Of a stretch of 54,914 nucleotides of DNA, positions 3,754 to 44,461 are shown piece by piece. Origin of the DNA: Chloroflexota bacterium (GTDB lineage: Bacteria > Chloroflexota > Anaerolineae > J102); assembly GCA_024224665.1 (NCBI GenBank), contig JAAENG010000424.1, positions 1 through 54,914 of the forward strand, given 5' to 3'. The notes below the pieces were generated by a model. The model was not told the origin of the DNA, made no database searches, and was given only the letters and a program-made list of their open reading frames with translations. The position numbers and the translations under genes were made by a program. Position 1 is the stretch's first letter. The number at the start of each line of letters is the position of its first letter.

Positions 3754-3921
3754 GTGAAACAGTGATGAGACTCAGAAAGTGAAGGTTAAGCCAATGCTCA
3801 TGGTGGTTGGTGAGGGGCAGGTCAGTTTGGACACTGAGGCGTCGTGACCCACCACAGTGAATCATTGTGTGGTGTAATGAAATGGTGTAAACTAACTACA
3901 CTAGCCTAAGGAGTCAAACTT

Positions 3922-4281: not shown

Positions 4282-4651
4282 CTCCAACGTTCTTATTAAA
4301 CTTATTCGCCGAGAACAACGAATTGAGAATATATTCCTCGGCTGGCATGCGCAAGGAACTGAACTTTTTATATCTGTTGCCACACGCACCGAGATCATTG
4401 CTGGCATGCACCCAATCGAAGAGGAGCGTACGCTGAGATTGCTCAATAGCCTTGTCAGCCTCTCCGTGGATGATAACATCGCCGATCAAGCCGGTCGTTG
4501 GATATATCTATACCGTCGCCAGGGCATCCAGCTTGCCTTGGCGGATACGATCATCGCAGCTACCGCCTGGGCACATGGTCTGACACTGGTGACATCAAAT
4601 GCCAAGCATTTTCCGATGGAAAACGTTAACGTGCTGGCTGTCAATTACTAA
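4262..4651 (+). CDS. vapC: PIN-domain ribonuclease toxin (VapC family)
   Basis: 129 aa with PIN acidic signature positions: LLDSNVL (Asp near the N-terminus), TRTEI (Glu), LADTIIAATA (Asp), TSNAKHF. Confidence 0.8.
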   Translation: MHGNLLDSNVLIKLIRREQRIENIFLGWHAQGTELFISVATRTEIIAGMHPIEEERTLRLLNSLVSLSVDDNIADQAGRWIYLYRRQGIQLALADTIIAATAWAHGLTLVTSNAKHFPMENVNVLAVNY

Positions 4652-4662
4652 TATCCTGCGAT

Positions 4663-5562
4663 CTATCCTTTTACACCACCGGCGGCCAGGCCCTCAGACA
4701 AGAAGCGTTCCATGCCCAGGAATAGCAGAACGATGGGAATGGTCATGATGGTGGAGGCTGCCATAACCACATGCGGACGAGGACTGGGATCGTTAAAAAT
4801 CGTGTTGATCTTGATGGGCATGGTGAACATGTCACGCTGGTTCAGAAACACCAGCGCGTACAGAAATTCGTTCCAAGCGATCATAAAAGTATAAATGCCC
4901 ACCGAGACCAAGGCGGGGATGGAAAGGGGCAGAGTGATCTTCCAGATCACGGCGAAACGAGAGCAGCCGTCGATTAGGCCGGCTTGCTCGATTTCTTCTG
5001 GGATCGTGCGAAAATAGTTGGCCAGCATATAAAGGGCCACAGGTAAGGTTTGCGCCAGGTAGGTGAAGACCAGGATCGGCAGATTATCTTGCACCTCGAA
5101 GCCCAAGCTCGTCCCGATTTTACTGAGCATTGCAAACAAGGGGATGATGAGCAAGATACCAGGGAAGAGATAGATGGCCAGGATGCCATTGAGCATGATG
5201 TCCTTTCCGCCGAAACGGAGGCGGACGATAGCATAAGCGCCCAACATCGAGAGTATGACGGCAATAAGCGACGTTGGGATGGCGACCAGGAAGCTGTTGA
5301 AGATATTTTGAGCGAAATTCCAAAAGTCGAATAATTCGAGATAAGCATCCCAACGCAATTCAGAGGGGATATAAACGGGTGCTCGTGCGCCGATCTCGGC
5401 GTAGGTCTTGAAGGAGGAACTGAGCATCCAATAGAAGGGGAAGAGAATACCGACTAGGAAAAAGCTCATCACCATGAGAAAGATGAATTTCGGCCAAGTC
5501 AGCCAGCGCCCCAGATGCTCGAAGTAAGTAAGTTGTTCGTTGTCCGCAGTGGTTTTTGCCAC
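4663..5562 (-). CDS. Carbohydrate ABC transporter permease (MalG/CUT1-like)
   Basis: Six predicted TM segments. EAA-type loop (EIEQAGLIDGCSRFAVIWKITLPL). GTG start preceded by a GGAGG site. Confidence 0.85.
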   Translation of the reverse strand: MAKTTADNEQLTYFEHLGRWLTWPKFIFLMVMSFFLVGILFPFYWMLSSSFKTYAEIGARAPVYIPSELRWDAYLELFDFWNFAQNIFNSFLVAIPTSLIAVILSMLGAYAIVRLRFGGKDIMLNGILAIYLFPGILLIIPLFAMLSKIGTSLGFEVQDNLPILVFTYLAQTLPVALYMLANYFRTIPEEIEQAGLIDGCSRFAVIWKITLPLSIPALVSVGIYTFMIAWNEFLYALVFLNQRDMFTMPIKINTIFNDPSPRPHVVMAASTIMTIPIVLLFLGMERFLSEGLAAGGVKG

Positions 5563-5574
5563 GATTACCTCCTT

Positions 5575-6537
5575 CTATGCCTCTTCTGCAGTACGCATGA
5601 AGAGCGCCACATAAACGATAAGGAATATCACCAGCGTCACCAGCAAAATCATGGCAGTGGCAGCGCCTGTGCCAAAATCGAAGAGTTTGAAACTGAACTG
5701 GTAGGTGAGCACGGGCAACACATTGGTGCCAAAACCGCCGCCGGTCAGCAAAAAGATGTCATCGAATTTATTGAATGTCCAGATAAGGCGCAGCAAGAAG
5801 ATCGCCCCAATCACATAGCGCAGTTCGGGAATCGTGATGTGTTTGAACTTAGCCCAATCGGAAGCCCCATCCACGTCGGCTGCTTCATAGAGTGTTCGAT
5901 CAACCGCCTGTAGGCGCGCCAAGATCATGAGCATAGCAAAGGGGAAATAGCGCCAGGCCTCAAAGAAAATAACGATGAGTAATGCAAGACCGCGCTGTGC
6001 CAAATAGGCTTTGGGCAGATCGATGAGCCCTAGGCTCATGAGGATGTGGTTGACTACACCGGATGGGCGGGGATCGAGGATCCACTTCCAAACAAAGGCC
6101 ACGCTGATGATAGGCGCCACATAGGAGAACAGAAAGATAGCCCGCGCCGTCCCGCGGCCGCGAAATGGCCGGTTGAGTAGAATCGCCGCAACCAACCCCA
6201 ACGCTACTGTCAAAGCGGTTGATACGAAGGAATAGACAACGCTGGTGACTGCCGCACCCCAGTTATTTAGCCCCTGAAATTTGAAGGCGAAATCATTGAA
6301 TACCCGCTGATAGTTCTCTAGGCCCACAAACTCCGCATTGAAGACATCGTTAAGATTGTTCAACCCTACATCGTGAAAGCTAATCCAAATGCTGAAAAAG
6401 GCAGGGAAAAGTACCAAGCTAAACACGATAAACGCTGTGGGAAGAATCAGGGCCCAGGCCAAGCGTGATTCTCTGGCGTTCATTGAGTTCCAGCGTTGTC
6501 GCCACGATGCTTTCGCCGGTTGGGTTGTCGTCATCAT
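5575..6537 (-). CDS. Carbohydrate ABC transporter permease (MalF/CUT1-like)
   Basis: TM-rich with an EAA loop (YEAADVDGASDWAKFKHITIPEL). The ATG at 6537 has a GGGAG site 5 nt upstream; the ORF could extend to 6549. Confidence 0.85.
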   Translation of the reverse strand: MMTTTQPAKASWRQRWNSMNARESRLAWALILPTAFIVFSLVLFPAFFSIWISFHDVGLNNLNDVFNAEFVGLENYQRVFNDFAFKFQGLNNWGAAVTSVVYSFVSTALTVALGLVAAILLNRPFRGRGTARAIFLFSYVAPIISVAFVWKWILDPRPSGVVNHILMSLGLIDLPKAYLAQRGLALLIVIFFEAWRYFPFAMLMILARLQAVDRTLYEAADVDGASDWAKFKHITIPELRYVIGAIFLLRLIWTFNKFDDIFLLTGGGFGTNVLPVLTYQFSFKLFDFGTGAATAMILLVTLVIFLIVYVALFMRTAEEA

Positions 6538-6640
6538 TCCAACTCCCATTCGGTCTGGATTGGTGAGAGGCCCAGCCCGTCTGGACCAGGCCTCTCAGGG
6601 GTAACGCGCGTATGTCAGATACACGTGTTATTGCGGACTA

Positions 6641-8038
6641 TTACTCGGCCTGGCGTTCGGCATAAATGGCATCTACCTGCTCTTGCAGCCATTCGGCAGC
6701 CGTCTCTGGCGTCATAATGCCTTCAAGGGCAATGTTGCTGATGGCCTGCGGAATCAGTAGACGACCCTCGATGTCGCCAACCACTGCTCGCTGGGCGGAA
6801 TCATAATCGGGTCGGAATAACCAGCGCTGCATGGTGTCGAAACCACCTGCGATCTGGCCCAGGGTCTCGGCGGAATAATTCGCGAAGTAGGGGCTGAGTC
6901 CTGACCAGCCCTCTACAGCGCTCTCCAGCGTTGGAACCTTACCAAATGGAGCCAGAGCTAGCACTTCGGTGTAGTTGTCGCCGGACATATAGAACTTCAC
7001 CACATCTTGCGCGATTGGATCGGCGCCTTCCATGATACCCAGCGTAACCAATTGGCCGTAAGAAGCGGAGCCGTTGGGGCCTTCCATCATCGAGGCGAAC
7101 CCGGTGTTACCAGGCAGGTCTTCGATCAGAATGTCGACGTTACCACCGGCTTCCAGGCCGGAGCCATCCACCAAGTCGTCCATGATGTAGGTGCTGTAGA
7201 CCAATGTGCCTGCCTGATCGAGTTGATACGCTTCACGAGCGCCTCGCCAGTATTGGGGGCCAGGCGGGGCACAGCGCTGCAGACCTGCGTAAAAGGCCAG
7301 AGCTTCAACCATCTCGGGCGTATTCATGGTTACATTGCCTTCCGCGTCGAAGGGCCAGGCATTGTTAGACATAGCCACCTGTTCGAACATCTGGTGAGGA
7401 TAGTTCTGGCCGGGGTCGGTACCCAAAGTGGCGCCATAGAGAAGGTTGCCGGTTCCAGGTAGCGTATCGCAAGCGGCGTTGATATCATCCCAGCTGACTG
7501 GTGGGTTCAGACCGGCATCTTCAAATAGATCGGTGCGATACCAGATCGCTTGAATCCAACCATCAAAAGGCACAGCGGCATACGTGCCCGTGGATGGATC
7601 AGTCACCATCGCCAGGGGACCCGTACGGAAGTCATCTTCACCGATGGCTTGAATGGCCGCAGTTGCAGCTTCCTGATCCAGGATACCGTCGGCAGAAAAG
7701 GTCGAAACACGCTCGATGCCCATACGCACGATGTCAGGCAGGCGGTTGGCAGCACGAGCCGTGGCGATGCGTTGGGAGATGCCCGCTTCCTCGATGGGCA
7801 CAATACGCAAATCTACACCTGGATTCTCGGCCATATAGCGGTCTGCGATTGCCTCATAGACCAAGATGCGATCTTCTTCATTGTCCGAGGTCCAGAATTC
7901 AATAACGGTCATGTCCATGGGCTCGGCTGGGACTTCGACGATTTTCTCGACTTCGATAACTTGGGGGGCGCCACACGCTGCCAGCACAGTTGCCAGCATC
8001 ATGACCAGCGCTACAAGCAAGAACGATTTCTTCATCAT
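6641..8038 (-). CDS. Extracellular sugar-binding lipoprotein of the ABC transporter
   Basis: Lipoprotein signal MMKKSFLLVALVMMLATVLAAC. Size and composition fit a family-1 solute-binding protein. GGAG site upstream of ATG 8038; the longer ORF to 8173 overlaps the end of lacI. Confidence 0.85.
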   Translation of the reverse strand: MMKKSFLLVALVMMLATVLAACGAPQVIEVEKIVEVPAEPMDMTVIEFWTSDNEEDRILVYEAIADRYMAENPGVDLRIVPIEEAGISQRIATARAANRLPDIVRMGIERVSTFSADGILDQEAATAAIQAIGEDDFRTGPLAMVTDPSTGTYAAVPFDGWIQAIWYRTDLFEDAGLNPPVSWDDINAACDTLPGTGNLLYGATLGTDPGQNYPHQMFEQVAMSNNAWPFDAEGNVTMNTPEMVEALAFYAGLQRCAPPGPQYWRGAREAYQLDQAGTLVYSTYIMDDLVDGSGLEAGGNVDILIEDLPGNTGFASMMEGPNGSASYGQLVTLGIMEGADPIAQDVVKFYMSGDNYTEVLALAPFGKVPTLESAVEGWSGLSPYFANYSAETLGQIAGGFDTMQRWLFRPDYDSAQRAVVGDIEGRLLIPQAISNIALEGIMTPETAAEWLQEQVDAIYAERQAE

Positions 8039-8127
8039 GTTTTCTCCTGAGAGTGGTGGGTGGATACGTTGAGCATTTGGAATGCGCGATACAGGCTGAG
8101 ATCTCTGTTGGACAGATTGCACCTCCT

Positions 8128-9171
8128 TTAAGATTCGATGTCGCCGCTGGCAGGGTACGGCTGCGCGCCGCACGATCTGCGAACGACCAGCGTAGGTTGT
8201 AAGATGATCTGTTGCTGCTTCAGTTCATCGCCGCGAATGAGTTTAAGCAGCATGTCGCACACCATGGCGCCGATCTTATAGATTGGTTGGTGTACGGTGG
8301 TAAGAGGGGGATGTGCGTGTTCAGACATGGGGATATCATCGAATCCAGTGATGGCGATATCCTTGCCCACGACCAGTCCGCGATGCTGGGCAGCGCTCAT
8401 GGCGCCAAAAGCCATGAGATCATTGCCGGCAATGATCGCCGTCGGCGGCTTGGCGTTGTTGAGCAGTGATTCCGTCGCCCGATATCCGCCACGCTGCGTG
8501 AGATCGCTTGTCACGATTTGGGGTGGATCCAAGTCCAGTCCGGTGCTTGCTAACCCCTCGCAAAAACCATGTAAGCGAAATTGCGTGAGCATGAGTTCGG
8601 GCGGTGGGGCGATGAAGGCGAAGCGGCGGTGTCGCAGGCCCATCAGGTGCTCGACCAACAGCCGTGTGCCCAAAGCACTATCCTCGTCTACCAGTGGGAA
8701 ATCCAACTCGCCCTCTGTGCGGCCAAACACCACGAAAGGGATTGTAGAGTTGCGCAAATATTCGATGCGGGGATCAATCCGCCGTGTGCGCACTACCACC
8801 AGCCCATCTACCCGCCTCCCCTGAACTTTACGGCGATACACATCCAATTCGCCATCTCCGGGTGCCTGGGTAGACACGAGTAAGTCATAGCCATGTTCTG
8901 CCGCCTTGTTACCCACACCCGCTAAAAACTCGCTGAAAAAGGGATCGGAAAAGCGAGGACCAAAGGTGGGCAAAACCAGGCCGATGATATCTGTACGCCG
9001 TTTCTGCAAACTTTGTGCCACACGGTTCGGTGTGTACCCCATCTCATCCGCTACCCGACGTACAAGCTCCTTAGTGCTGAGACTGACATCGTCCTTATCA
9101 GCCAGCGCGCGCGAAACGGTGGTAATCGATTTTCCCGTTTGTTGGGCAATGTCTTTGATCGTAACGGACAT
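8128..9171 (-). CDS. LacI-family transcriptional regulator
   Basis: N-terminal HTH (VTIKDIAQQTGKSITTVSRAL) followed by a periplasmic-binding-protein-like sugar-binding core. Confidence 0.9.
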   Translation of the reverse strand: MSVTIKDIAQQTGKSITTVSRALADKDDVSLSTKELVRRVADEMGYTPNRVAQSLQKRRTDIIGLVLPTFGPRFSDPFFSEFLAGVGNKAAEHGYDLLVSTQAPGDGELDVYRRKVQGRRVDGLVVVRTRRIDPRIEYLRNSTIPFVVFGRTEGELDFPLVDEDSALGTRLLVEHLMGLRHRRFAFIAPPPELMLTQFRLHGFCEGLASTGLDLDPPQIVTSDLTQRGGYRATESLLNNAKPPTAIIAGNDLMAFGAMSAAQHRGLVVGKDIAITGFDDIPMSEHAHPPLTTVHQPIYKIGAMVCDMLLKLIRGDELKQQQIILQPTLVVRRSCGAQPYPASGDIES

Positions 9172-9215
9172 GACGCCATCGCCTGATAGTTTGTTCAGAC
9201 AGCACAATATATGAA

Positions 9216-9229
9216 TCAAAACGTTTTGG
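9216..9229. promoter_or_regulatory. LacI-type palindromic operator, copy 2 (tCAAAACGTTTTGg)
   Basis: The core CAAAACGTTTTG is a perfect palindrome with the central CG typical of LacI-family operators. It lies about 45 nt upstream of the lacI-family start codon. Confidence 0.6.
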
Positions 9230-9240
9230 TTCGTACTGCT

Positions 9241-9269
9241 AGTGTATTCCAAAACGTTTTGGTTGTCAA
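9241..9269 (-). promoter_or_regulatory. Putative sigma-70 promoter of the lacI-family/sugar-transport operon
   Basis: Read on the minus strand: TTGACA, a 17-nt spacer that contains operator copy 1, then TACACT. Confidence 0.45.
9249..9262. promoter_or_regulatory. LacI-type palindromic operator, copy 1 (CCAAAACGTTTTGG)
   Basis: Perfect 14-bp palindrome. It sits inside the spacer of the putative minus-strand promoter. Confidence 0.6.
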
Positions 9270-9396
9270 TTCAAGTGCCTACGAGGTGTGTGCGTCAAGA
9301 TTTCAGATAGACAATTATGCCCCAGCCGGATCGACAAATCCGGCGGTCTCAAACGGCAGATCTGTCGATCTGTCTGGAGCGATAGACCCAGAATCC

Positions 9397-9437
9397 AAAA
9401 AAAACTGGCGCACACCCGCCTAGGGGGTCTGTGTGCC
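9397..9437 (-). terminator. Intrinsic terminator-like hairpin plus T8 tract on the minus strand, with no assigned upstream gene
   Basis: Minus strand reads GGCACACAGACCCCC-TA-GGCGGGTGTGCGCC followed by AGTTTTTTTT. Confidence 0.5.
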
Positions 9438-9604
9438 TGATTGGGCTCAAGGTAATATTTTGTTCGTTACGCTGACGTTTTTTCGCGGTTCTCGCAAGGG
9501 GTCGCCCTGACCATATAGCGCTGGTCACAGCCATGTCCTTTACACCGTAACCACCTGCAGACTGTTTCCCGACACTAGGAATATCCTTGATCACGGCAAG
9601 AATT

Positions 9605-9633
9605 TTGGAAAAAACGCTCATTAGTGCTATAAT
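9605..9633 (+). promoter_or_regulatory. Putative sigma-70 promoter of rpsO
   Basis: TTGGAA, 17-nt spacer, TATAAT. It lies about 115 nt upstream of the rpsO GTG. Confidence 0.55.
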
Positions 9634-9747
9634 CACCCACTGGGCCATAGTCTGTGCCCACCAGATAGGGTGTTCATCCATTCCAGCTGGGGCATTCGTC
9701 AAGGTATTCCAGCGGTGCTCCGGCCTCAAACAAAGGAGAAATCCTAA

Positions 9748-10017
9748 GTGACTCTTAGTGCTGTCCAGAAGCAGGCGATTATCGAGGAATACCACCTACA
9801 CACAAGTGATACAGGCTCCCCTGAAGTGCAGGTGGCCCTTCTGACCACACGTATCAATCAACTCATCGACCATCTCAAAACCCATAAGCACGACGAGCAT
9901 TCTCGCCGTGGGTTGCTGAAATTGGTCGGCTCGCGACGGCGACATCTCGCCTACCTTAAGCGCAAAGATGCGCAACGTTACCAAGAACTCATTCAGAGGC
10001 TTGGCTTACGCAAGTAG
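9748..10017 (+). CDS. rpsO: 30S ribosomal protein S15
   Basis: 89 aa with the diagnostic S15 sequence ([49 protein letters not shown]). GTG start after AAAGGAG. Confidence 0.95.
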
Positions 10018-10035
10018 TTGACATTCAGCCAGTTC

Positions 10036-10078
10036 GGACGAGTAGATGGGAACCTATTCACCCATCTGCTCGTTTCAT
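10036..10078 (+). terminator. Hairpin downstream of rpsO (possible attenuating terminator or processing site)
   Basis: GACGAGTAGATGGG / CCCATCTGCTCGT stem with one mismatch. Only a weak T tract follows (TTTCATAT). Confidence 0.4.
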
Positions 10079-10334
10079 ATCTGGCTGATCTCATCCCGCT
10101 AGGGATGACTGACAACTAAATAGACCTAACCACTCAACTCACCACCAATCGCTCACCCGAAAGCCGCAATCCATCCGCAGTGCAGGGTGCAGGAATTGGA
10201 AAGTGCGCCTCACGTGTAAAATCGAACCTCTTGAGGCTCAGTTCCCAGTCCCTGACCTTGCTGAATCCTGAATTAGTGCTGATCAGCACCTGGTGATTGC
10301 TTCTGGTATGGGTGTGTCCAAATCAAGGAGTATC

Positions 10335-12672: not shown

Positions 12673-13332
12673 ATGAACGAATTCGAACCGGGTATCGAGC
12701 ATCTGGGTGAACCGGGTCCCTCATCCGAGGTGTCCGGCGATACCGAGACTCGATCTACATTCGATATAATGACGGATGGCCCTCTGGTGGTAGAAACACC
12801 CACCAGAGGGCAGGCTATTGGGTCGGGTGTGCGCGAGATCCTGGTGACGATTGTGCCGGCCCTGCTGATCGCTCTGCTGATACAGCTTTTTGTTGCTCAG
12901 GCGACGCGTGTCGAGAGCTACAGCATGGAACCAACCCTATTCGAAGAGAACCGGCTGATCATCGACAAGATCTCTTACCGTCTGCGTTTACCCGAAAGAG
13001 GCGAGATCGTCGTCCTCAATGCACCCGATGGAGGCGACATTCCCCTGATCAAACGCGTTGTTGGCCTGCCGGGAGAGACGATATCGATTCGTAACAGCCA
13101 GGTTTTTATCGATGACAATCCATTGGTCGAATCCTACTTACAGACGGTAACGCATGGCGAATTGCCACCAACGATTATCCCTGAAACGCACATCTTTGTT
13201 TTGGGCGATAACCGGGATCACTCTCGAGATTCTCGTTCATTTGGCGCAGTAGCCCTCGATGAATTGATCGGCCGGGCGTGGTTCCGTTACTGGCCTGTAG
13301 AGAAGATCGGATTCTTTCAATCTGTGCAATAA
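12673..13332 (+). CDS. lepB: Signal peptidase I (copy 1)
   Basis: SMEPTL (catalytic Ser box), IKRVVGLPGE (Lys box), GDNRDHSRDSRSFG. Confidence 0.85.
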   Translation: MNEFEPGIEHLGEPGPSSEVSGDTETRSTFDIMTDGPLVVETPTRGQAIGSGVREILVTIVPALLIALLIQLFVAQATRVESYSMEPTLFEENRLIIDKISYRLRLPERGEIVVLNAPDGGDIPLIKRVVGLPGETISIRNSQVFIDDNPLVESYLQTVTHGELPPTIIPETHIFVLGDNRDHSRDSRSFGAVALDELIGRAWFRYWPVEKIGFFQSVQ

Positions 13333-13529: not shown

Positions 13530-14186
13530 ATGACACATTCAACGCAATCACGGCGGACGCTTCCGCCCGACGCCCGCATTATCCACCCCGACCAACAGCC
13601 TCAGCGCTACGACGGTGCTATGGCTGCCCAGCTTCCGCGTCCTCTCGCTCCGGTGCGCCCGGTGTCCTCTGGTCCCACTATGGGACAGACTCTACGAGAG
13701 TTAGTCGAGACGATTTTGCCGGCGGTTCTTATCGCTTTGCTTATCCATCTCTTTTTGGCTCAAGCAACGCGTGTCGAGGGCTATAGCATGGAACCCACCT
13801 TGTTTGGGCATCAGCGCTTGGTAATCGAGAAACTATCCTACCGCTTCCACTCTCCAGAGCGTGGTGATATCGTCGTTCTTCGCGCCCCCGGCTATGGTCA
13901 AGAGATGTTGATTAAGCGGGTTATTGGCTTGCCGGGTGATCAGATACGCGTGCAAGATGGTGAAGTGTATGTCAACAATGTATCCTTGGATGAGCCTTAC
14001 CTGAAAAGCTCGACGCGGGGGCAGGTTTCACAGACGCTGGTCCCCGAAGACTCTGTTTTCGTCATGGGAGACAATCGCAACAACTCCAATGATTCTCGGG
14101 CATTTGGCCCAGTGCTCTTTGAAGATATTGTAGGACGAGCTTGGGTTCGCTACTGGCCTGTCACCGATGTCGGTATGGTTGACTGA
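13530..14186 (+). CDS. lepB: Signal peptidase I (copy 2)
   Basis: SMEPTL, IKRVIGLPGD, GDNRNNSNDSRAFG. Clear paralog of copy 1. The start is uncertain; internal ATGs occur at 13620 and 13680. Confidence 0.85.
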   Translation: MTHSTQSRRTLPPDARIIHPDQQPQRYDGAMAAQLPRPLAPVRPVSSGPTMGQTLRELVETILPAVLIALLIHLFLAQATRVEGYSMEPTLFGHQRLVIEKLSYRFHSPERGDIVVLRAPGYGQEMLIKRVIGLPGDQIRVQDGEVYVNNVSLDEPYLKSSTRGQVSQTLVPEDSVFVMGDNRNNSNDSRAFGPVLFEDIVGRAWVRYWPVTDVGMVD

Positions 14187-14241: not shown

Positions 14242-16011
14242 ATGGATACCCGTTGGTCATCCACCACTAAACTCATCATACTGATTATCGTCCTGGTTTT
14301 TTCAGCCGCCGTGCTGGTCAGGCTGGAACAGGCGATTCTGCCTTTATTGCTGGCGTTTGTCCTGGCATACCTGCTGAAACCAGCGGCAGATTGGCTTATG
14401 AGACGAACGGGATGGCCGCGTGGATTTGCCATCATCGTCATTTACCTGATTATCCTTTTTTTGTTGATTTTGATGCCATTGGCAGTGACGCCAAGTGTGA
14501 TATCAGTCATCTCTAGCATCAACATCGATTTCGAGTCCCTAAACCCCCTTTTAGAGTCGCTCGATTCTGATATCCCGGTACTCGGTCCTATTGTCCTAAA
14601 TCTGGGCGAGGTGTTGCAACAATCCCTTCAAGGGCTCCAATCCTTTGTTACACCATTTGCCTCGGGCGCTGTTCAGGTCGTGGCCGGTGTTGCCACCAGT
14701 CTTTTTTGGGTCGTGTTTGTCTTTGTGGTGGTGTTCTGGCTGATCAAGGATAGCTACAAACTCGAGGGTTGGATCGTCAGCCACATCCCGCCTGCCTATC
14801 AAGGAGAGATATCGCTTCTCTTGTCCGAACTGGGTATGATTTGGGGGAGTTTCTTCAGGGGTGAGCTTGTGTTGGCTATCACGGTAGGGTTTATGGTTTG
14901 GATCAGCATGGCTGTTCTAGGTATCAATAATGCCCTTCTGCTTGCAATCATCTCTGGGTTAATGGAGTTCATACCCACGATTGGGCCGATTATCGCCGCG
15001 ATTCCTGCCATCTTGATCGCCTGGTTTACGGGGTCTAGTTGGCTGCCGCTCAGTCATTTTGTTGTCGTACTACTCGTCATTCTTGTTTATACTTTTATTT
15101 TTCAGCTCGAGCAACTCTATCTGTTACCGCGCATCGTAGGCAGGCGGGTGCGGTTACACCCTGGTGTTGTGTTCGTAGGAACCATTATCGCGGCAGTCGA
15201 GTTCGGCGTCTTAGGTGTGTTATTGGCGGCGCCGGTCATCGCCTCGGTACGCCTTTTTGGCAATTATGTCTACCGCAAAATGCTCGATCTCGAACCCTTC
15301 TCAACCCTGCCAGGCTCAGATCCTGTTGCCATCGAATGGCGAGGTATGATACGAGGCCAACCGATCGCCGCCATCTTCTTCGATCTCGACGGTACGATCA
15401 TCGATACCGACGATGATATGATCGAGCATGTCGCCGATAACATGGGTCTTTTGCGAAGGATTTTCCCCGGACGCAATCCGCGCCCCTTTCTCCGCCATCT
15501 ACTAATGCTGGGCGAAGGGCCTATCAATCGGGTCCTAACAACATTTGACCGCTTGGATATCGATGATGATCTATTTCGGTTGAACGACTGGATAAGGCGG
15601 GCATTGGGATTGAGTCGTTCTGACGCGATGACCCTGATTCCCGGGGTCGTGTCGACTTTAGATGAACTCAAGAAGTCTTACCGGCTGGCTGTTGTAACGA
15701 CACGGGGGCGCACAGTTGTTGACCGTTTCTTGGCAGATAGTGCTTTAGAGCACATGTTCGAAGTTGTAATTACACGTGATGATGTCCGACGCTTGAAACC
15801 CCATCCCGAGCCTGTATTGCGGGCGGTAGAATTGATGGGATTGGAGGCGGAACAGTGTGTCATGGTTGGTGATACCAGTGCCGATGTCCTGGCGGCGCGA
15901 GCGGCAGAAGTGCATGTCATAGCCGTTCTAAGTGGGTTTGGCCAGACCCAGGATTTAGAAGATGCTGACGTAATTCTCGAAACGACATCGGAACTGACCG
16001 ACTGGCTGTAG
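14242..16011 (+). CDS. Fusion protein: AI-2E/PerM (UPF0118) family transporter plus HAD-superfamily phosphatase (Gph-like)
   Basis: The N-terminal ~360 aa is multi-TM with AI-2E-like segments (MEFIPTIGPIIAAIP). The C-terminal ~220 aa carries HAD motifs: FFDLDGTIIDT, VVTTRGR, and K...MVGDTSADV. Confidence 0.75.
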   Translation: MDTRWSSTTKLIILIIVLVFSAAVLVRLEQAILPLLLAFVLAYLLKPAADWLMRRTGWPRGFAIIVIYLIILFLLILMPLAVTPSVISVISSINIDFESLNPLLESLDSDIPVLGPIVLNLGEVLQQSLQGLQSFVTPFASGAVQVVAGVATSLFWVVFVFVVVFWLIKDSYKLEGWIVSHIPPAYQGEISLLLSELGMIWGSFFRGELVLAITVGFMVWISMAVLGINNALLLAIISGLMEFIPTIGPIIAAIPAILIAWFTGSSWLPLSHFVVVLLVILVYTFIFQLEQLYLLPRIVGRRVRLHPGVVFVGTIIAAVEFGVLGVLLAAPVIASVRLFGNYVYRKMLDLEPFSTLPGSDPVAIEWRGMIRGQPIAAIFFDLDGTIIDTDDDMIEHVADNMGLLRRIFPGRNPRPFLRHLLMLGEGPINRVLTTFDRLDIDDDLFRLNDWIRRALGLSRSDAMTLIPGVVSTLDELKKSYRLAVVTTRGRTVVDRFLADSALEHMFEVVITRDDVRRLKPHPEPVLRAVELMGLEAEQCVMVGDTSADVLAARAAEVHVIAVLSGFGQTQDLEDADVILETTSELTDWL

Positions 16012-28405: not shown

Positions 28406-31400
28406 CTACGATATTTCCAGACAACCGGTTCCGTGCATTGCTTGCAACTGGTCTAGCAACTCATCACAACACCGCGTGGTGTCGTTAGGAAAATCCAGCT
28501 CTACCGTACCTCGAGCATCGTTCACCACCAGAAGAAAGCGATCCTGCCCTTCGTATTGTCGGAATAGTTGAACTGTTTCGACCAAACGTCGATTGTCGTC
28601 TTTGTCGGCACCTAACGAGAATTTGAGACGCAGCATACGCGGGGATGGCGTCTCATGGGGTTGTTCGGCGATGCCGTTGGAGCCAGTATGGCCGGTTGGT
28701 CTATCACTCTCAGGTGGGGGGGCATTCCCACCACTATCGGTCGAAAACCAGGGCGGATCCTCTTCATCTGCCGGCTCCGGGGGATATTCTTCGGAAGGTG
28801 GCTCTTCTGGGACCCATGAAGGTGGGGGGGGTGGACTGGCGAACTGTGGCAGGATATCGTCGGCTGCCACGGCGCGACTGAATGTGTCAGAGATATGATC
28901 TGCCAGCACACTGACCCGATCCTTGTGGCTTTCAATTTTACCTCGTACCAAAACGACGTTGCCTTCTTTCAAAAGATCGTCAGGTGTGGCTTCCAACGTG
29001 CGGGAAAAAATAGTCACGTCACAATTACCTTGCAGATCTTCCAATGTGGCGAAGGCCATTCGATTACCCTTTTTAGTGAAGATGGTGCGCATGCTGGCGA
29101 TCATTCCCGCCAAGACGACATCTCGACCTACTTTGTTTTCGGTGACCTCATTACACAGACAGGAAATTACATCTTTGTAATTGGCAGTCACTCGTTCTAG
29201 CGGATGTTCCGAGACATAGACACCCAATAATTCCTTCTCCCATCCCAGGCGTTCTCGCGTTGGCGCCGCTTCAAATGTCGGTGGCGGATCAAAGAGGTCT
29301 TGAGCACTATTTTTTTGCTCGGGCATATCGAACATGTCGAACAGACTGATTTGTCCCACATCACGCGCTTCCCAGGTGCTGATGGATAGCTGCATCATGC
29401 GGTCGATAATGGCCAACACCATCTCTCTGTCCTCGTAGGCATCAAATGCCCCGACCTTGATCAGGCACTCCAGCGCCCGTTTGTTGACCTTGCGCAAGTC
29501 AGCGCGTTCGCAGAAATCCTGTAGCGAGGTGAAAACACCCTCTTCACGGGCTCGTAGAATCTCTTCGACCGGCCCATGTCCCACATTCTTCACCGCTCCC
29601 AACCCAAAACGAATGGCCGATCCTTTTGGCGCCATGAAATCAAAAGCACTGCGCCCAAAAGTGGCGATATCGACCTCGACCAATCCTTCCCGGATAGCAA
29701 ATCCCAGGTCTGACTGATTGATATCGGGCGGCAATACAGCGATGCCCATCTTGCGACACTCCGTGATGAAGTTGGTCACCTTTTCCTGATTATCTAACTC
29801 GACCGTGAGCAATGCCGCCATGTATTCGACCGGATAATGCGTCTTCAGGTAGGCTGTTTGTACCGTGATGACGGCGTAGTCGGCGGCATGGCTATTATGA
29901 ACGAGGATATCATTGGCGACGAAATTATGGGTTCCCGGCACTTCGAGGTCGTAAGTTTGTTTTTCGCCGACATACTCAATCTCTGCGATTTTATCCCAAT
30001 AGAGATCGTTATTCGCATAGTCGTGTTGATTTCCCTTCTTAAAATGAAGTGTAGACCGGCTGTTTGTGTCGCACTGAAAGTCAGGGTTCCTGGCAATGCC
30101 ATGAGGACAGCATTCACGTCCGCTAACACCAGTTTCTGTGCGAATGTATTTCCAGGTCATATTTGATTGGGATTTAACACCGCCAACAAGCTTGTCAGCA
30201 ATAACGGGATTGATATCTTGTGGACTCGACGATGCAGGCTGTCTTGAGTACAAGCTCTGGAGATCCGATTGTAAGTCAGGATCAAGAAAATAGATGCCGA
30301 TCCTTTCGGCAAATGCTGCGATATCCTCCTTACCACTGACAATAAGCTGATAACCGATTCCTCCCTCTTCGGATGGATACTCAACAATGCGTAATCGACT
30401 GATAATGCCCAGGCGTAATAGTAAATGCTGCAGTTGCCTGGCCATTCGCTCGGACGCAGTTGCATAAAAAAGATTACGTCTCGCAATACGAACCTGCCCA
30501 TCACCGGCCCACATACGGCTGATCAGGAGAGCAATTTGGCGGTTGTTCAGTTCGAATGCCGCTTCAGGGATCGCTTGCTCAGGTGCGTTTGTACCCCACA
30601 TACCAAGCGTTTGCGCCCAGGCGACGATACCCGATGGTTGACTGCGGTCAATTCGGTCGGTATGCGCCGCATAGGTATTCTTGTAGACAGTTACTGCACA
30701 TTGCACGTTGGAGAATTGTTCTGCAGCCCGGGCATAATCATCGCATTGGATTGCGTTCTGGCTGTGGATGCAGAACGACGTAGAATCGCAGAGACATCCT
30801 TCAGTCAGTAAGTGCCCTAATGCCACAACCTCATAATCCGGCCATTCTATTGTGCCTTCGACCGGAAGTGCCCGCGGGACCGCTATCTGGTCTCCAACCT
30901 GTAAATCATCGAGTTCGCGCCAGCCGCCAAATGTATAGAAGGGATGATTCCCCGTCGCTTCGATGCGGCGCCCCAAGGCAGTGGTCAAACGATAGACAGG
31001 TTTGATGCCGTTTTCCATCACTTTCGAAACGCGCCCTTTGCCCAATTTCAGTTCAGATAGATCGCATGTTATCGTGTGATCGAGGTGAGTGGTTTGCTGA
31101 TAAAGATCTGCCACTCGAAGCAATCGGCCTGTTGCTGCGTCCACGACTTCAACATCACCCGGCAGACATTTGTTGAAGCCATAATTAGCGAAATAAACGA
31201 TATCTTTGTAGATCTTGTCCGCGGCTGCGCGGGGAATGCCTCGCTCCACCGCCCCCTCGATGAATTTTACCTGATGCGTGGCCATCTCCTTTTCTTTTTT
31301 CTTGGCCACAGCCCGACGCATTAGATCCGCCTCACCAGGTGTGTAACCGGCCAACTGCGATGCGATTTGGATGATCTGTTCTTGGTAGACGATGATGCCG

Positions 31401-33448
31401 TAGGTTTCGGCTAGGATTGATTCCAAAGCCTGATGTGCGTAGATCACCTTTTGCTTGCCATGCATACGTTCCACATAGTCGGGAATATATTGCATGGGAC
31501 CGGGTCGATACAGGGAAATGGTGGCAACGATCTGTTCGAATTTGGTGGGTTGCATGCCTCGCAACACCCGGCGCATACCCTCTGACTCAACCTGGAATAC
31601 ACCGGTCACCTCACCCGATGTCAACAGCTCGTAGCTACGAGGATCGTCGGTGGGGATGTTGTCGAGGGTGTAACTTTTGCCATGCCGTTTTTGAATCAGT
31701 TCAGCTGCCACGCGCATGATCGTCAACGTAGATAAACCCAGAAAATCCAGCTTGAGCAGCCCCAATGATTCCAGAACCGGATAGGAATATTGAGTGATGT
31801 AATCGCGCAGACCCTTGTTGGGGGATCGGCGCAGGGGTGTGTAATGGACCAGGGGCTTATCCGCTACGATCACAGCTGCGGGATGGATGCTGACGTGCCG
31901 GGCGACACCTTCCAGTTTTTGTGCTGTATCGATGAGCTCGCGCGTGCGTTTGTCCCGATCGTAGAGCATACGCAGCTCCTTGACCTCCTCCAATCCCTTT
32001 TTTATCGTGACTTTGGGTCCTCCGGGGATCAACTTTGCGATAGAGTCCACATCGTCCAATGGTACTTCCATCACCCGGGCAACATCACGAACACTCCCCC
32101 GCGCTTTCATGGTCCCGAACACCACGATCTGGGCGACCTGATCTCCACCATATTTTTGGATCGTATATTCGATCATCTGATCGCGCTGATCGTCGGGATA
32201 GTCCAAGTCGAAATCGGGCATGCTGACACGGCCAGGATTGAGGAAGCGCTCGAAAATCAGGTTATTGGACAGGGGATCTAGCTGGGTAATACCGACGGCA
32301 TGGGCCACCAGCGATCCTGCACCCGACCCGCGTACGTTCCACCAGATGTTGCGCCGGCGAGCGTATTCACATAGATCCCATACGATCAGGAAATAGGTGT
32401 CGAAACCCATCTGATGGATGATCTTCAACTCATGCTCTTTGCGCGTCTGGATATCCGCTTCACCGACACGGCTGCCATAGCGCTGTTTCAGGCCATCCTC
32501 CACCAAATGTCGCAGGTAGGCTTCGGCCGTGAAACCGGTGGGTACATCAAAATTTGGGAGATGGTAGCCGGTGGGGCTCAGATCCACTTCGCACATCTCG
32601 GCGATTTTCAAAGTGTTTGTGAACACACTAGTAGGAAGATCGGCCAATGGGCGGAAAAGATCTTCCATTTCGGCACGTGACTTTAAAAAGTAGCCCCCGT
32701 CCGACATACGCATGCGGTTTGTCGCATTGATACTGCTGCTCGTCTGTACACACAGCAAGATATCATGTGGCGTCGCGTCTTCGGCCCTGACATAATGGAC
32801 ATCATTGGTTGCCACCATGCCCACGCCATATTTATGCGACCACTCCAGCAGGGTTTTGTTAATGCCATGCAGGGAGGGTATCGAATGTTCCTGTAATTCG
32901 ATGTAAAAACGATCTTTGCCAAAGACATCGAGGTACCAATGCAACCGTTCCCGCGCCAGTTTTGGATCTGGTGCTCGACTTTCGTCATTGAGATAGTAAG
33001 GCACTTCACCAGCCATGCAACCGCTGGTACAAATGAGCCCCTCACTGTATTGGGCCAGGAAATCGGCGTCGACACGTGGGCGATAGTAATAGCCTTGCAA
33101 TTCTGCAGCGGAAACGATCTTGAGCAAGTTGCTGTAACCGGTTTGGTTCTGCGCCAATAGCAATAAGTGGTGCCTATCCCGATCGAGCTGCGAATCTCGG
33201 CCTGACATCGGGCGACCCCACCTGGTCATGTACGCCTCGACGCCGATGATGGGCTTGATGCCAGCGGCGGTGGCGGCATTGTAAAAATCGATGGCGCCAT
33301 GCATGCTGCCATGGTCGGTCAGCGCCAGGGCGGGCTGGCCCAGTTCTTGGGCGCGGGCAATCAGATCTTTGATTTTGCTCAAGCCATCGAGTAGCGAATA
33401 CTCGCTATGGACATGTAGGTGGACGAATTCTTGTTGGGGAGCACTCAT
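28406..33448 (-). CDS. dnaE: DNA polymerase III alpha subunit (DnaE) containing an intein
   Basis: PHP domain (FVHLHVHSEYSLLDG), palm/fingers (GRVSMPDFDLDY, VFQVES, LYRPGP, YGFNK...SHAADYA) and an OB fold. The ORF opens at GTG 33517; ATG 33448 fits the usual N-terminus better. Confidence 0.9.
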   Translation of the reverse strand: MSAPQQEFVHLHVHSEYSLLDGLSKIKDLIARAQELGQPALALTDHGSMHGAIDFYNAATAAGIKPIIGVEAYMTRWGRPMSGRDSQLDRDRHHLLLLAQNQTGYSNLLKIVSAAELQGYYYRPRVDADFLAQYSEGLICTSGCMAGEVPYYLNDESRAPDPKLARERLHWYLDVFGKDRFYIELQEHSIPSLHGINKTLLEWSHKYGVGMVATNDVHYVRAEDATPHDILLCVQTSSSINATNRMRMSDGGYFLKSRAEMEDLFRPLADLPTSVFTNTLKIAEMCEVDLSPTGYHLPNFDVPTGFTAEAYLRHLVEDGLKQRYGSRVGEADIQTRKEHELKIIHQMGFDTYFLIVWDLCEYARRRNIWWNVRGSGAGSLVAHAVGITQLDPLSNNLIFERFLNPGRVSMPDFDLDYPDDQRDQMIEYTIQKYGGDQVAQIVVFGTMKARGSVRDVARVMEVPLDDVDSIAKLIPGGPKVTIKKGLEEVKELRMLYDRDKRTRELIDTAQKLEGVARHVSIHPAAVIVADKPLVHYTPLRRSPNKGLRDYITQYSYPVLESLGLLKLDFLGLSTLTIMRVAAELIQKRHGKSYTLDNIPTDDPRSYELLTSGEVTGVFQVESEGMRRVLRGMQPTKFEQIVATISLYRPGPMQYIPDYVERMHGKQKVIYAHQALESILAETYGIIVYQEQIIQIASQLAGYTPGEADLMRRAVAKKKEKEMATHQVKFIEGAVERGIPRAAADKIYKDIVYFANYGFNKCLPGDVEVVDAATGRLLRVADLYQQTTHLDHTITCDLSELKLGKGRVSKVMENGIKPVYRLTTALGRRIEATGNHPFYTFGGWRELDDLQVGDQIAVPRALPVEGTIEWPDYEVVALGHLLTEGCLCDSTSFCIHSQNAIQCDDYARAAEQFSNVQCAVTVYKNTYAAHTDRIDRSQPSGIVAWAQTLGMWGTNAPEQAIPEAAFELNNRQIALLISRMWAGDGQVRIARRNLFYATASERMARQLQHLLLRLGIISRLRIVEYPSEEGGIGYQLIVSGKEDIAAFAERIGIYFLDPDLQSDLQSLYSRQPASSSPQDINPVIADKLVGGVKSQSNMTWKYIRTETGVSGRECCPHGIARNPDFQCDTNSRSTLHFKKGNQHDYANNDLYWDKIAEIEYVGEKQTYDLEVPGTHNFVANDILVHNSHAADYAVITVQTAYLKTHYPVEYMAALLTVELDNQEKVTNFITECRKMGIAVLPPDINQSDLGFAIREGLVEVDIATFGRSAFDFMAPKGSAIRFGLGAVKNVGHGPVEEILRAREEGVFTSLQDFCERADLRKVNKRALECLIKVGAFDAYEDREMVLAIIDRMMQLSISTWEARDVGQISLFDMFDMPEQKNSAQDLFDPPPTFEAAPTRERLGWEKELLGVYVSEHPLERVTANYKDVISCLCNEVTENKVGRDVVLAGMIASMRTIFTKKGNRMAFATLEDLQGNCDVTIFSRTLEATPDDLLKEGNVVLVRGKIESHKDRVSVLADHISDTFSRAVAADDILPQFASPPPPPSWVPEEPPSEEYPPEPADEEDPPWFSTDSGGNAPPPESDRPTGHTGSNGIAEQPHETPSPRMLRLKFSLGADKDDNRRLVETVQLFRQYEGQDRFLLVVNDARGTVELDFPNDTTRCCDELLDQLQAMHGTGCLEIS
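29894..31168 (-). mobile_element. Intein (425 aa) with LAGLIDADG-like homing-endonuclease motifs, inserted in DnaE
   Basis: Starts at Cys1 (CLPGDVEVVD). Contains TGNH (block B), LGHLLTEGCL and LISRMWAGDGQV, and YDLEVPGTHNFVAN. Ends in HN followed by Ser+1. Excision restores GFNKSH. Confidence 0.85.
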
Positions 33449-33610
33449 AGGAAGGTGTGGGGGAGATGAGTGAAGGGCGACGATTGAGTGATTATAACGT
33501 TCTGCGACTGCACTCACAACCTGACCGGAACGCGCGTTCTAGCCATCGGTTTACGCGAATTACCGTCGTAGACGCACAGTCTCTACGATATATCGTGGCA
33601 TATGACGGCC

Positions 33611-33807: not shown

Positions 33808-35058
33808 CTATGAGATAGTTTCTCCACTCACCACTTCGTTGACAGTAAACTGCTCAGGGGCAGTGCCAGCCGTTACCACCACATTGCGTCCAAGATGAAC
33901 GGTGTCCGGGACGTGCGCTCCTCTGCCTATCAGAGTTATGCCTGTGTTGAGGATGTCGGGGAGAGTGGTATTGGGGATATTGTTATCGCCTGCACCTATC
34001 CTGGCGTTTGCACCTATGACGACATTTTTATCGAGTATCGCCCGATTGATAATAGCGCCATCGCCAATACTCGTATCGTTCATAATGATACTGTCTTGCA
34101 CTTCGGCATCGGGCCCGATATACACACCTGGGCCAATGACAGAGCGATAGACTTTGCCTTCGATTCTGGCGCCGTCACTGAGAAGGTTGCCGCCAATTTG
34201 GGCGTTGGAGCCCAGCCAAACCGGGGGGTATTGCTGCGAGCGCGTATGAATTACCCAGCGCTGATCCGAAAGATCTAATGCGGGGATGTCCGATAACAGG
34301 GCCATGTTGGCTTCATAATAGGCAGGAACGGTACCGACATTGGTCCAATAACCCTCAAATTCATAAGCGTAGACTCGTTTGCGTTTCACCAACCTGGGCA
34401 TAAATTCACCGCCCAGATGCGTAAATTTCTTTCCGGAATCTGTTAGCCAATCATGCAATACTCCGGCACTGAATACATAAATACCCATGCTGGCCAGCGT
34501 CGAGCGCGTACGCCTTGGCTTCTCTTCGAAACGAGTCATGCGGCCGTCGGTATCCGTTGTCACCATGCCGAAGCGATGTGTTTGATAAGGACCCACCGCT
34601 CGTACAGCAACTGTAACATCTGCCCGTCGCTGTTGGTGAAACTCGAGCATAGGGCGGTAATTCATTTTATAGATGTGGTTGCCCGAAAGAAGAAGCACCT
34701 GATCGGCCCGGCTTTCGCGTATGACGTCGAGGTTGAAACGTACGGCATCGGCTGACCCCTCTTGCCAGGCGCCACTTTCCTCGGCGCTACTCTGATAGGG
34801 TTGCAGCAAACGCACCCCTCCTTCTGTCCGATCCAGATCCCAAGGTTTGCCCGCGCGGATATGGTCGTTCAAAGAGCGCGGCATGTATTGCGTGAGCACA
34901 GCAATGTTATAGATCTCCGAATTGACGCAATTGGAGAGTGGAAAATCAATGACCCGGTACTTGCCACCGAAGGGGATGGAGGCTTCTGCGCGACGGGCAG
35001 TCAGGGTACTCAAACCGGGGGCAGCGCCGCCTGCAAGGATCATGGCGAGAACGCTCAT
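33808..35058 (-). CDS. glgD: Glucose-1-phosphate adenylyltransferase paralog with degenerate catalytic residues (GlgD-like)
   Basis: Colinear with GlgC, but GGEGSRL reads GGAAPGL, RAKPSV reads RAEASI, and SGDHIYK reads SGNHIYK. ATGA overlap with the upstream glgC. Confidence 0.75.
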
Positions 35059-36404
35059 GTTGTTTTCTCCTCTGCTGCTTCGATTTCGCCATCTAAGGTG
35101 GGCGAGGGTGTAACGGGAGGGGAAGATTGGGGGATATCGACTTTGCCGGGGGCTAAGGTCGAACCACTGGGAATGCAGTCGTAGCCAGCAGCATCATCTT
35201 CATCGACACCAGTCTGTACAAGCACATTTCGGCCGATCCTGATGTTGGCGGGAAGGTGCGCACCCTTGCCGATAACGGTGATGCCTGTGTCCAGCTTGTC
35301 AGGCAGTAACTGGTTGGGTATCAGATCGTCTCCATAGCCAATTTGAGCGCCGGAGCCGATCATGACTTGTTTGTCGACGACTGCACGCTCTACGATGGCG
35401 CCGGGACCAATCCAAGTGTCATTCATGATAACTGACTCTTGAACTACAGCACCGGGTGAAACATAGACCCCGGGAGAGAGCACAGAATGTTCTACCCGCC
35501 CGTGAATAACACAACCATTGCTCACCAATGAACGAATGACCTGGCCCTGGGCGCTACACCTCACCGGTGGCCGTTCCTGACTACGGGTTCTTATCACGAA
35601 GTTCGGGTCCCACAGATTGAGAGGGCTATCAGGATCACAGAGTTCGAGAGATGTTTGCCAGTAAGCATCGACGGTTCCGACGTCGACCCAATAGTCGTCG
35701 AATTGATAGGCATAAACCTTGTCCCTCTCAATCATGCCGGGAATGATGTGATTCCCGAAATCCAGATTGGGTTCTAATTCGTGCTCTTGTTGTAAACGCC
35801 TGGCCAGCGTGTCCACATCGAATATGTAGATGCCCATGCTGGCCAATGTCCCCTTATCTCGCTTTTTCGGTTTTTCGTGAAATTCGGTGATCCTTTCGTT
35901 CTTATTGGTGGTCATGATACCGAAACGATCGGTTTCTTCTAGCGGCACATTCATGACCGCGACCGTCAGATCGGCATCTTTTTCTTCATGATGGGCGATC
36001 ATTTCCCGATAATCCATTTTGTAGATATGATCGCCCGATAAAATGATAACCAGGTCCGCATCACGATTGAATAGATAATCAAGATTCTGGTAGACGGCGT
36101 CGGCGGTCCCCTGGTACCATCCCTGTGAGCCGCGGGCAAGGTAGGGTTGCAGCAGACGAACACCGCCTCGTACCCGATCTAGATCCCAAGGCTTCCCGAT
36201 ACCGATGTGTTCATTCAGTGAATGCGGCCGGTACTGGGTGAGAATGGCGACATCGTAAATCTGAGAATTGATGCAATTGGACAGGGGGAAATCGATAATA
36301 CGGTATTTTCCGGCAAAGGGGACCGATGGCTTGGCGCGATGCGCCGAGAAAACAGTCAAACGTGATCCTTCACCACCGGCCATAATCATTGCCACCACAC
36401 GCAT
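35055..36404 (-). CDS. glgC: Glucose-1-phosphate adenylyltransferase
   Basis: [50 protein letters not shown] and a left-handed beta-helix C-terminus. ATG 36404 lies 7 nt after GAGG; the ORF opens at GTG 36410. Confidence 0.85.
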
Positions 36405-36654
36405 AAACACACCTCGACTGGAACAAAGATATTGAGAGAGATCGACAAAAAAACGGGGGACATGATTAGAGTAACAAATAGGGGAGGATGCCGCAAGAAT
36501 TTACCCACGTTAGGGTGTGCGTCACATCTCTGGATTGACATTTTGTAAAGATGTGGGACGCTGATTCTGAACCACGCCATAAACCGGAATTAGTCATCCA
36601 GTGGGGATCAGAAAATCAACTGCCTGGATTTCCGATATTAGGAAGTCTGGCAAT

Positions 36655-41110: not shown

Positions 41111-41114
<4 letters not shown>
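40224..41114 (+). CDS. GalU-like sugar-1-phosphate nucleotidyltransferase paralog with a degenerate G-x-G-T-R loop
   Basis: [17 protein letters not shown] occupies the position of KAVIPAAGLGTRFLPATK. The rest is colinear with GalU-type NTP-transferases. GGAGG lies 7 nt before ATG 40224. ATGA overlap with the next gene. Confidence 0.6.
40853..40892 (+). repeat. In-frame 9-bp tandem repeat (GCATGCAGC x4 plus a partial copy) encoding (HAA)n
   Basis: Four perfect copies fall at 40853-40888, each with an SphI-like GCATGC. The translation is [14 protein letters not shown]. Confidence 0.9.

Positions 41115-44461
<3,347 letters not shown>

Follow-up and report, generated by a model that had tools for sequence, protein, structure and literature searches.

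A contiguous LAGLIDADG-bearing intein at the GFNK|SH site of DNA polymerase III alpha in a Chloroflexota bacterium, with a constrained splicing domain and a probably relaxed endonuclease

The gene for DNA polymerase III alpha (dnaE) of a Chloroflexota bacterium (Anaerolineae, J102; assembly GCA_024224665.1), together with the intein that interrupts it, is the subject of this analysis. Both lie in a stretch of 54,914 nucleotides (contig JAAENG010000424.1, positions 1 to 54,914), which is referred to here as the window. The gene occupies positions 28406..33517 of the minus strand, where a single open reading frame (ORF) encodes a precursor of 1703 amino acids, intein included. Its product carries the full Pfam set of a Pol III alpha (PHP, DNA_pol3_alpha, finger, HHH_6 and OB) and matches the NCBIfam models PRK06826 (1269 bits) and PRK05673 above their equivalog cut-offs. 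The N-extein (31169..33517, amino acids 1-783) aligns with the Pol III alpha of Taq and Escherichia coli up to the junction, its last residues being IVYFANYGFNK, while the C-extein (28406..29893) runs from Ser+1 through HhH and OB domains, a Pro/Glu-rich linker and a C-terminal domain to the stop codon; both are full length, conserved and stop-free. Since the profile matches begin only at about amino acids 28-33, the true start of dnaE is likely the ATG at 33448 (MSAPQQEFVHLHVHSEYS) rather than the upstream GTG at 33517, and the spliced protein, which has 1279 amino acids when counted from the listed ORF, would then have about 1256.

Between the two exteins, positions 29894..31168 of the minus strand translate without a stop into exactly 425 amino acids (CLPGDVEVVD...FVANDILVHN, Cys1 to Asn425), directly after IVYFANYGFNK. 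This block shows the landmarks of a class-1 intein: Cys1, the block B motif T72-G-N-H75, the two LAGLIDADG-type motifs LGHLLTEGCL (E123) and LISRMWAGDGQV (D223), the block F sequence YDLEVPGTHNFVAN, the residue D407, and the terminal pair H424-N425 followed by Ser+1. The N-terminal splicing (Hint) lobe comprises amino acids 1-105 (30854..31168, with block B at 30944-30955) and is recognised by TIGR01445 and by its likeness to the DnaB mini-inteins 1mi8 and 4o1r; the C-terminal lobe comprises amino acids 386-425 (29894..30013), with blocks F and G in YDLEVPGTHNFVANDILVHN, and is recognised by TIGR01443 and by the family consensus, which its amino acids 401-425 match at 96%. Both TIGR models score above their cut-offs (33 bits against 15.6 for TIGR01443), as does the Pfam family Intein_splicing (PF14890, E=2.4e-28, 99 bits against 35.8). 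In addition, the block aligns over its full length to the intein part of PRK07773, a model of intein-containing DnaB (E=6.9e-79), and scores 637 bits with a hidden Markov model built from 78 copies of the same allele. In an alignment of 58 homologs from DnaE, DnaB and dCTP-deaminase hosts, C1, H75, D407 and H424 never vary, and the conservation of T72 and N425 is 90% or more.

When the intein is excised, the exteins align without a gap over fanygfnkshaa (FANYGFNKSHAA) to the Pol III alpha of Taq (2hpi) and E. coli (2hnh). A preliminary description of this DNA, made from its letters, had placed a 425-residue LAGLIDADG intein with class-1 landmarks at these positions and had proposed that its deletion recreates GFNKSH; the coordinates agree to the base, all the motifs it quoted are present, the Pfam and TIGR matches go far beyond chance, and the gap-free alignment bears out the restored motif. 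Cys1, the TxxH motif, His-Asn with Ser+1, the Hint fold and profiles, and a removable in-frame insertion for which intein-free alleles exist are thus all found together, and it is virtually certain that the block is a genuine class-1 intein inserted in dnaE between the Lys and the Ser of YGFNK|SH (the bar marks the insertion point). From the conserved residues, the intein is also predicted, with high confidence, to be competent for splicing.

The endonuclease part of the intein consists of a LAGLIDADG core (amino acids 106-300; 30269..30853, minus strand), which is supported by Pfam, Foldseek and conservation, and of a helical tail (amino acids 301-385; 30014..30268), which is conserved among homologs and strongly diverged in the window copy. 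The Pfam family LAGLIDADG_3 (PF14528) covers amino acids 211-291 (E=1.8e-16, 60.6 bits against a cut-off of 22.5). Both LAGLIDADG helices end in an acidic residue, LGHLLTE123G in motif 1 (30791-30820) and RMWAGD223G in motif 2 (30491-30526). E123 is invariant in an alignment of seven same-site sequences, and D223 is present in all aligned full-length same-site copies except P0002, which has Asn, and is at least 90% conserved in the set of 58. P and L numbers denote the homologous proteins and loci, respectively, used in the comparisons (for example, P0001 and L002-L081).

An AlphaFold2 model of the intein, based on 58 homologs, reaches a predicted local distance difference test score (pLDDT) of 90 and a predicted template modelling (TM) score of 0.89. 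The best Foldseek matches of this model are whole bifunctional inteins, namely TliVMA (7qss, TM 0.73/0.71), PI-PfuI (1dq3), PI-TkoII (2cw7) and PI-SceI (1vde). Further matches are found to mini-inteins (4o1r, with a target-normalised TM of 0.90, and 6frg, with 0.81) and to the LAGLIDADG proteins I-DmoI, I-Tsp061I, PI-PfuI and WhiA. The confidence of the model is low in the helical tail (pLDDT 53-83), for which the Pfam search gave no significant match; this tail might have a DNA-binding role similar to that of a helix-turn-helix.

The preliminary description had implied that such an intein is rare, which did not hold. A scan of species-representative genomes yielded at least 505 relatives, inteins of other host genes included, and its best 80 loci were dissected. 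The pattern YGFNK|C...HN|SH is found in a single stop-free frame in 77 of these 80 loci, 75 of the 77 inteins having 424-429 amino acids. An exhaustive search with a 120-residue query laid over the junction between intein and C-extein, run on representatives of 50%-identity clusters, returned 51 representatives at E<=1e-30, and in about 130 of the 150 best the match crosses the junction as one stretch. All DnaE-embedded homologs from the first protein search share the identical insertion site; their carriers include Caldilinea, Anaerolineae, Ardenticatenaceae, Aerophobetes, Rhodothermales and Gemmatimonadota, and, judging from C-extein sequences alone, further hosts appear to be DnaE2-like, Deinococcus-Thermus-like and gammaproteobacterium-like. 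The carriers among the best 80 loci are mostly Chloroflexota, a phylum (as Chloroflexi) missing from those listed in 2015 as having inteins in Pol III alpha (PMC4760082). The allele is therefore abundant, the same insertion being present in far more than a hundred other lineages of bacteria, and the closest intein among the species-representative loci listed is 58% identical to the window copy. In the phage collection searched, no carrier of the GFNK|SH allele was found, the sole matches being distant inteins in phage terminase and DnaB genes.

Gene calls of many homologs start or end within the intein on long contigs, and a natural split inside the endonuclease domain was considered for this reason; it was rejected, as the frame is continuous in 77 of the 80 loci. 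In the syntenic relative L001 (ENA contig_22222, 335 kb; 5260-10097 and 3532-4853), dnaE has been called as three overlapping fragments, with a frameshift in the N-extein and another within the intein, and the neighbouring nucleoside triphosphate (NTP)-transferase gene is fragmented too. These breaks are most likely indel errors of a long-read assembly, and similar errors probably explain many of the database proteins that begin inside a GFNK|SH intein. Natural deletion derivatives of the allele, which have lost part of the endonuclease domain, occur in L075 (3001-4077), L078 (3001-4149) and P0004 (359 and 383 amino acids), and stand further along the path of endonuclease loss that leads to mini-inteins.

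The presence of the intein is polymorphic. Intein-free relatives exist (P0121-P0125), and DnaE alleles with a contiguous GFNKSH and no intein occur in close relatives; the intein-free P0124 and the intein carrier P0026 have 89% identity in the first 150 residues of the C-extein. Across 70 loci, intein identity and extein identity are moderately correlated (Spearman 0.47), and the inteins exceed the flanking DnaE in similarity by more than 5 points in 1009 of 2415 pairs. The Caldilineaceae locus L008 and the Longimicrobiaceae locus L073, for instance, are 33% identical in their exteins and 61% identical in their inteins. Given the intein-free close relatives, and the many cases in which inteins resemble each other more than their host genes do, it can be concluded that the allele has been mobile. 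The third-codon-position GC content is 0.45-0.52 in the window intein and 0.56-0.61 in its exteins. Carriers show strong conservation in the DNA of the reconstituted empty site (TTCGCTAATTATGGCTTCAACAAA|AGCCATGCCGCCGACTACGCCGTC), and the window version is close to the family consensus.

Within the lineage of the window, vertical inheritance is indicated. In a neighbour-joining tree of the inteins, the window copy groups with L002, L003, L007, L009, L015 and L011, and the first five of these loci, which belong to metagenome-assembled genomes labelled 'Anaerolineae bacterium', also hold the nearest exteins (76-77% identity); it is on this agreement between intein-tree neighbours and nearest exteins that the vertical descent is based. 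Some intein-free alleles of Anaerolineae type (P0123, P0127, P0128 and P0131) read GFNK-AH, with Ala at the would-be +1 position, and could not tolerate a GFNK|SH intein because the splicing nucleophile is absent.

The nearest counterparts of the window intein are the same-site inteins of other Chloroflexota (Caldilineaceae, Anaerolineae, Ardenticatenia and Thermoflexia), of Longimicrobiaceae and Gemmatimonadaceae, and of others (P0001, P0002, L002-L081), which are in public genomes but largely undescribed. They share the insertion point, the architecture of about 425 amino acids and the catalytic residues, with 43-58% full-length identity to the window copy. This copy differs from them in its longest branch, in its deviation at 15 near-invariant positions and in the net negative charge of its endonuclease domain, as detailed below. 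Among solved structures, the best relatives by sequence are the DnaB inteins of Npu (4o1r, E 3e-27) and Ssp (1mi8, E 1e-24); DnaB inteins show about 30% identity, endonuclease and tail included, but their host is the DnaB helicase and their insertion site is another one. The bifunctional inteins TliVMA (7qss), PI-PfuI (1dq3), PI-TkoII (2cw7) and PI-SceI (1vde/1lws) have the same two-domain fold, which combines a Hint horseshoe with a LAGLIDADG alpha/beta saddle, and differ in their archaeal or yeast hosts, in their low identity (11-16%) and in their accessory DNA-recognition regions, the tail of the window copy belonging to no Pfam family.

Inteins are also present in the DnaE of Thermus thermophilus. 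The split DnaE inteins of cyanobacteria have Cys-Phe-Asn at the start of the C-extein throughout (PMC3585056), which places their site at Y|(C/G)FNK when aligned with AGYGFNKSH of E. coli. The GFNK|SH site lies four residues downstream, in the same motif of the same host protein, and the statement in the preliminary description that the split site sits a few residues earlier was accurate. The two kinds of intein differ in other respects: the split ones (Ssp and Npu; 2keq, 4kl5) are encoded by two genes, lack an endonuclease and use Cys+1, whereas the window intein is contiguous, occupies one uninterrupted ORF, bears a LAGLIDADG domain and uses Ser+1. A specific kinship between them was considered and rejected. 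The BLASTP match of Npu DnaE (its sequence confirmed by the PDB matches 2keq and 4kl5) with the window intein is limited to 11 of 24 residues in block F/G, a generic likeness, and there is no DnaE intein among the PDB matches of the window intein at E<0.01. For these reasons, it is concluded that the split site and the GFNK|SH site were invaded independently.

Novikova et al. (2016) described a hot spot in the fingers domain of Pol III alpha, with sites a-d and g within 75 residues and site a being the split one (PMC4760082). The GFNK|SH site falls in this hot spot, adjoining site a; a published name or letter for it was not found in the literature searched (main text only for PMC4760082). How crowded this hot spot is can be seen in P0296, a match of the exhaustive search: this DnaE of 2788 amino acids with at least four inteins has two of them parted by an extein of six residues (NFVSHN|SYGFNK|CLTGDT...GIVSHN|SHAVEY), a reading that reveals, besides the split site, a further insertion site six residues upstream of that of the window. 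The exhaustive search also returned P0241, a giant protein of 5631 amino acids other than DnaE; its five Hint-like mini-domains each end in GI[VL]AHN, with TYI next, and may form an array of domains that resemble bacterial inteins.

The feature that sets the window copy apart from its relatives is the divergence of its endonuclease domain. The window copy has diverged more than any other full-length family member, and its terminal branch, at 0.287 (median 0.112), is the longest of 70. At 120 alignment columns that are at least 90% conserved, it deviates at 15 (median 2), all of them within amino acids 115-363. These deviations are K198Q, R270G, R329G, K361N and 11 others, so the active-site periphery and DNA-contact residues of the endonuclease do not follow the family. 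The helical tail matches the family consensus at an identity of 0.34 (median 0.59), the second lowest of 78. In Tajima-type relative-rate tests against five sister copies, the endonuclease region has 67-75 changes unique to the window and 26-35 unique to the sister (p 1e-4 to 2e-6), while in the splicing lobes the counts are 16-20 and 12-19, a difference that is not significant. By sequence comparison, then, the endonuclease domain evolves 2-3 times faster than in the sister copies, and the splicing domain does not. A hidden or compensated frameshift in the diverged tail was considered as well, and was ruled out by a tblastn search with P0001, in which one frame-1 alignment spanned the entire intein and the other frames yielded nothing better.

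The same rates bear on the idea that the block is a non-splicing insertion, or the gene a dead dnaE pseudogene whose function is covered by a polymerase encoded elsewhere. The window contains a single copy of dnaE, which leaves room for a second copy outside it. However, the splicing residues are intact, the splicing lobes change at the rate of the sister lineages, the exteins are full length and stop-free, and dnaE sits in the same syntenic context as in a relative, all of which makes this explanation extremely improbable.

The composition of the endonuclease domain has shifted in the same copy. Its net charge is -5 (median +5.5) and its Lys and Arg residues number 26 (median 36), both values being the lowest of 78; about ten basic residues have been lost from this domain, while the charge of the splicing domain is typical. 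At position 198 (30575-30577, minus strand), a Lys that is at least 90% conserved across DnaE, DnaB and dCTP-deaminase inteins is replaced by Gln. The intein also holds 10 cysteines (rank 77 of 78; family mean 5.2), among them those of N125C, Y133C and F353C at otherwise conserved positions.

According to these data, it is proposed that the window harbours a bifunctional class-1 intein, vertically inherited, in which splicing is constrained and the endonuclease is relaxed, a reading to which a probability of about 0.78 is assigned. The splicing domain would be under normal constraint, and the endonuclease, probably under relaxed constraint, would be weakened or inactive. That the endonuclease is impaired is itself somewhat favoured over full activity, and the window copy probably still splices and homes poorly or not at all.

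Several observations weigh against this proposal. The endonuclease frame is intact at the family-typical 425 amino acids, E123 and D223 are kept, and the core still folds confidently in the AlphaFold2 model. The relative-rate test rests on a consensus outgroup and on a neighbour-joining topology. Lys198 may correspond to the active-site lysines K98 of I-CreI and K301 of PI-SceI: it lies 75 residues past E123, a distance that resembles those of D20-K98 in I-CreI and D218-K301 in PI-SceI, the likeness being one of spacing and not of superposed structures. Finally, the faster change could reflect retargeting instead of decay, and residual or retargeted activity may persist. The suggestion in the preliminary description that the endonuclease may still be active thus keeps its basis in the two acidic residues, and has been made doubtful by the accelerated change, the loss of basic residues and K198Q. 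Since frame, length and both LAGLIDADG acidic residues are intact, any decay would be early at most.

In a rival reading, which the intact frame, the two acidic residues and the confident core fold also support, the intein would be a fully functional mobile element whose endonuclease has diverged by adaptation, for example by tracking a target site that has drifted. The uniform full length of the family and its horizontal spread imply that active endonucleases exist among copies of this allele. Nevertheless, the target DNA of the window is near the family consensus, leaving no drifted target to track, and an adaptive change has to be reconciled with some ten missing basic residues, with 15 altered near-invariant positions including K198, with the low model confidence of the tail and with an acceleration seen in the endonuclease domain only. 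Full function as a mobile element is accordingly regarded as unlikely.

The cysteines raise the question of whether the intein has been kept as a post-translational regulator, in which conditional splicing, for example redox-sensitive through its many cysteines, would gate the supply of active replicase. Inteins are concentrated in replisome proteins, it has been proposed that they serve a function (PMC4760082), and in the lineage of the window the intein is apparently fixed and vertically inherited. Yet the extra cysteines sit in the decaying endonuclease domain, where random substitution is the simplest account of them, intein-free close relatives exist in the wider group, and fixation is expected for any intein of an essential gene because imprecise loss is impossible. 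Such a regulatory role is very unlikely. A broader version of it is judged just as improbable: an endonuclease-dead, fixed resident whose splicing, conditional on redox state or stress, would throttle Pol III alpha, with FG|SYGFNK, Y|CFNK and GFNK|SH marking an effective control position.

The remainder of the 55-kb window is ordinary chromosome, with genes for PNPase, two signal peptidases, panB, panC, a Xer-type recombinase, coaX, two glgC-like proteins and others. The two glgC-like genes, of the NTP-transferase/hexapeptide type (33808-35058 and 35055-36410), adjoin each other with a 4-nucleotide overlap directly upstream of dnaE on the same strand, and the signal peptidase I (S26) genes are tandem paralogs (12673-13332 and 13530-14186). 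Two further ORFs were singled out: the first (14242-16011) encodes an AI-2E family transporter fused to a HAD hydrolase domain, and the second (41111-44461, 1116 amino acids) has as its sole match a weak one to UDPGP (UTP-glucose-1-phosphate uridylyltransferase) at residues 899-1013. At the C terminus of DnaE (28406-28900, roughly amino acids 1540-1703), a short C-terminal domain, for which the Pfam search gave no match, follows a low-complexity linker rich in Pro and Glu (PPPPPSWVPEEPPSEEYPPEPADEEDPP); the DnaE of L001 likewise has a linker of Pro/Glu-rich type. No tRNA gene and no Rfam family above threshold were found anywhere in positions 1-54914, and the window contains no second intein.

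The conserved residues and the established chemistry of inteins allow a pathway to be proposed for the precursor. After translation, Cys1 would undergo an N-S acyl shift, and the N-extein would then be moved to the Ser+1 hydroxyl by trans-esterification. Asn425 would cyclise to a succinimide with the assistance of His424, freeing the intein, and an O-N shift would leave a native Lys-Ser peptide bond in an intact Pol III alpha of 1279 amino acids. On a longer scale, the family has spread both vertically and horizontally, its endonuclease homing into intein-free alleles. Under the homing-cycle model, selection on the endonuclease would lapse once an intein is fixed, because no empty sites are left, while splicing would stay selected because dnaE is essential; the window copy would be in the early decay phase of this cycle.

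For annotation, the consequence is that the spliced protein should be taken as the true DnaE product. Being contiguous, followed by Ser+1 and of the DnaB-like clade, the window copy is also a candidate for mini-intein engineering, a possible use for which many better-conserved relatives exist. Its value as a discovery is small, given that inteins in the fingers domain of Pol III alpha have been described and that public genomes contain many copies of this very allele. The window intein is an ordinary representative of a large class of replisome inteins, already recognisable, and its site lies in a hot spot known from earlier work; the new, mildly informative point is the lineage-specific erosion of its endonuclease. 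With splicing lobes constrained, endonuclease relaxed and frame intact, it would provide a clean natural case of an intein in the decay phase of homing, and a comparator for its sister copies, in which the endonuclease is conserved.

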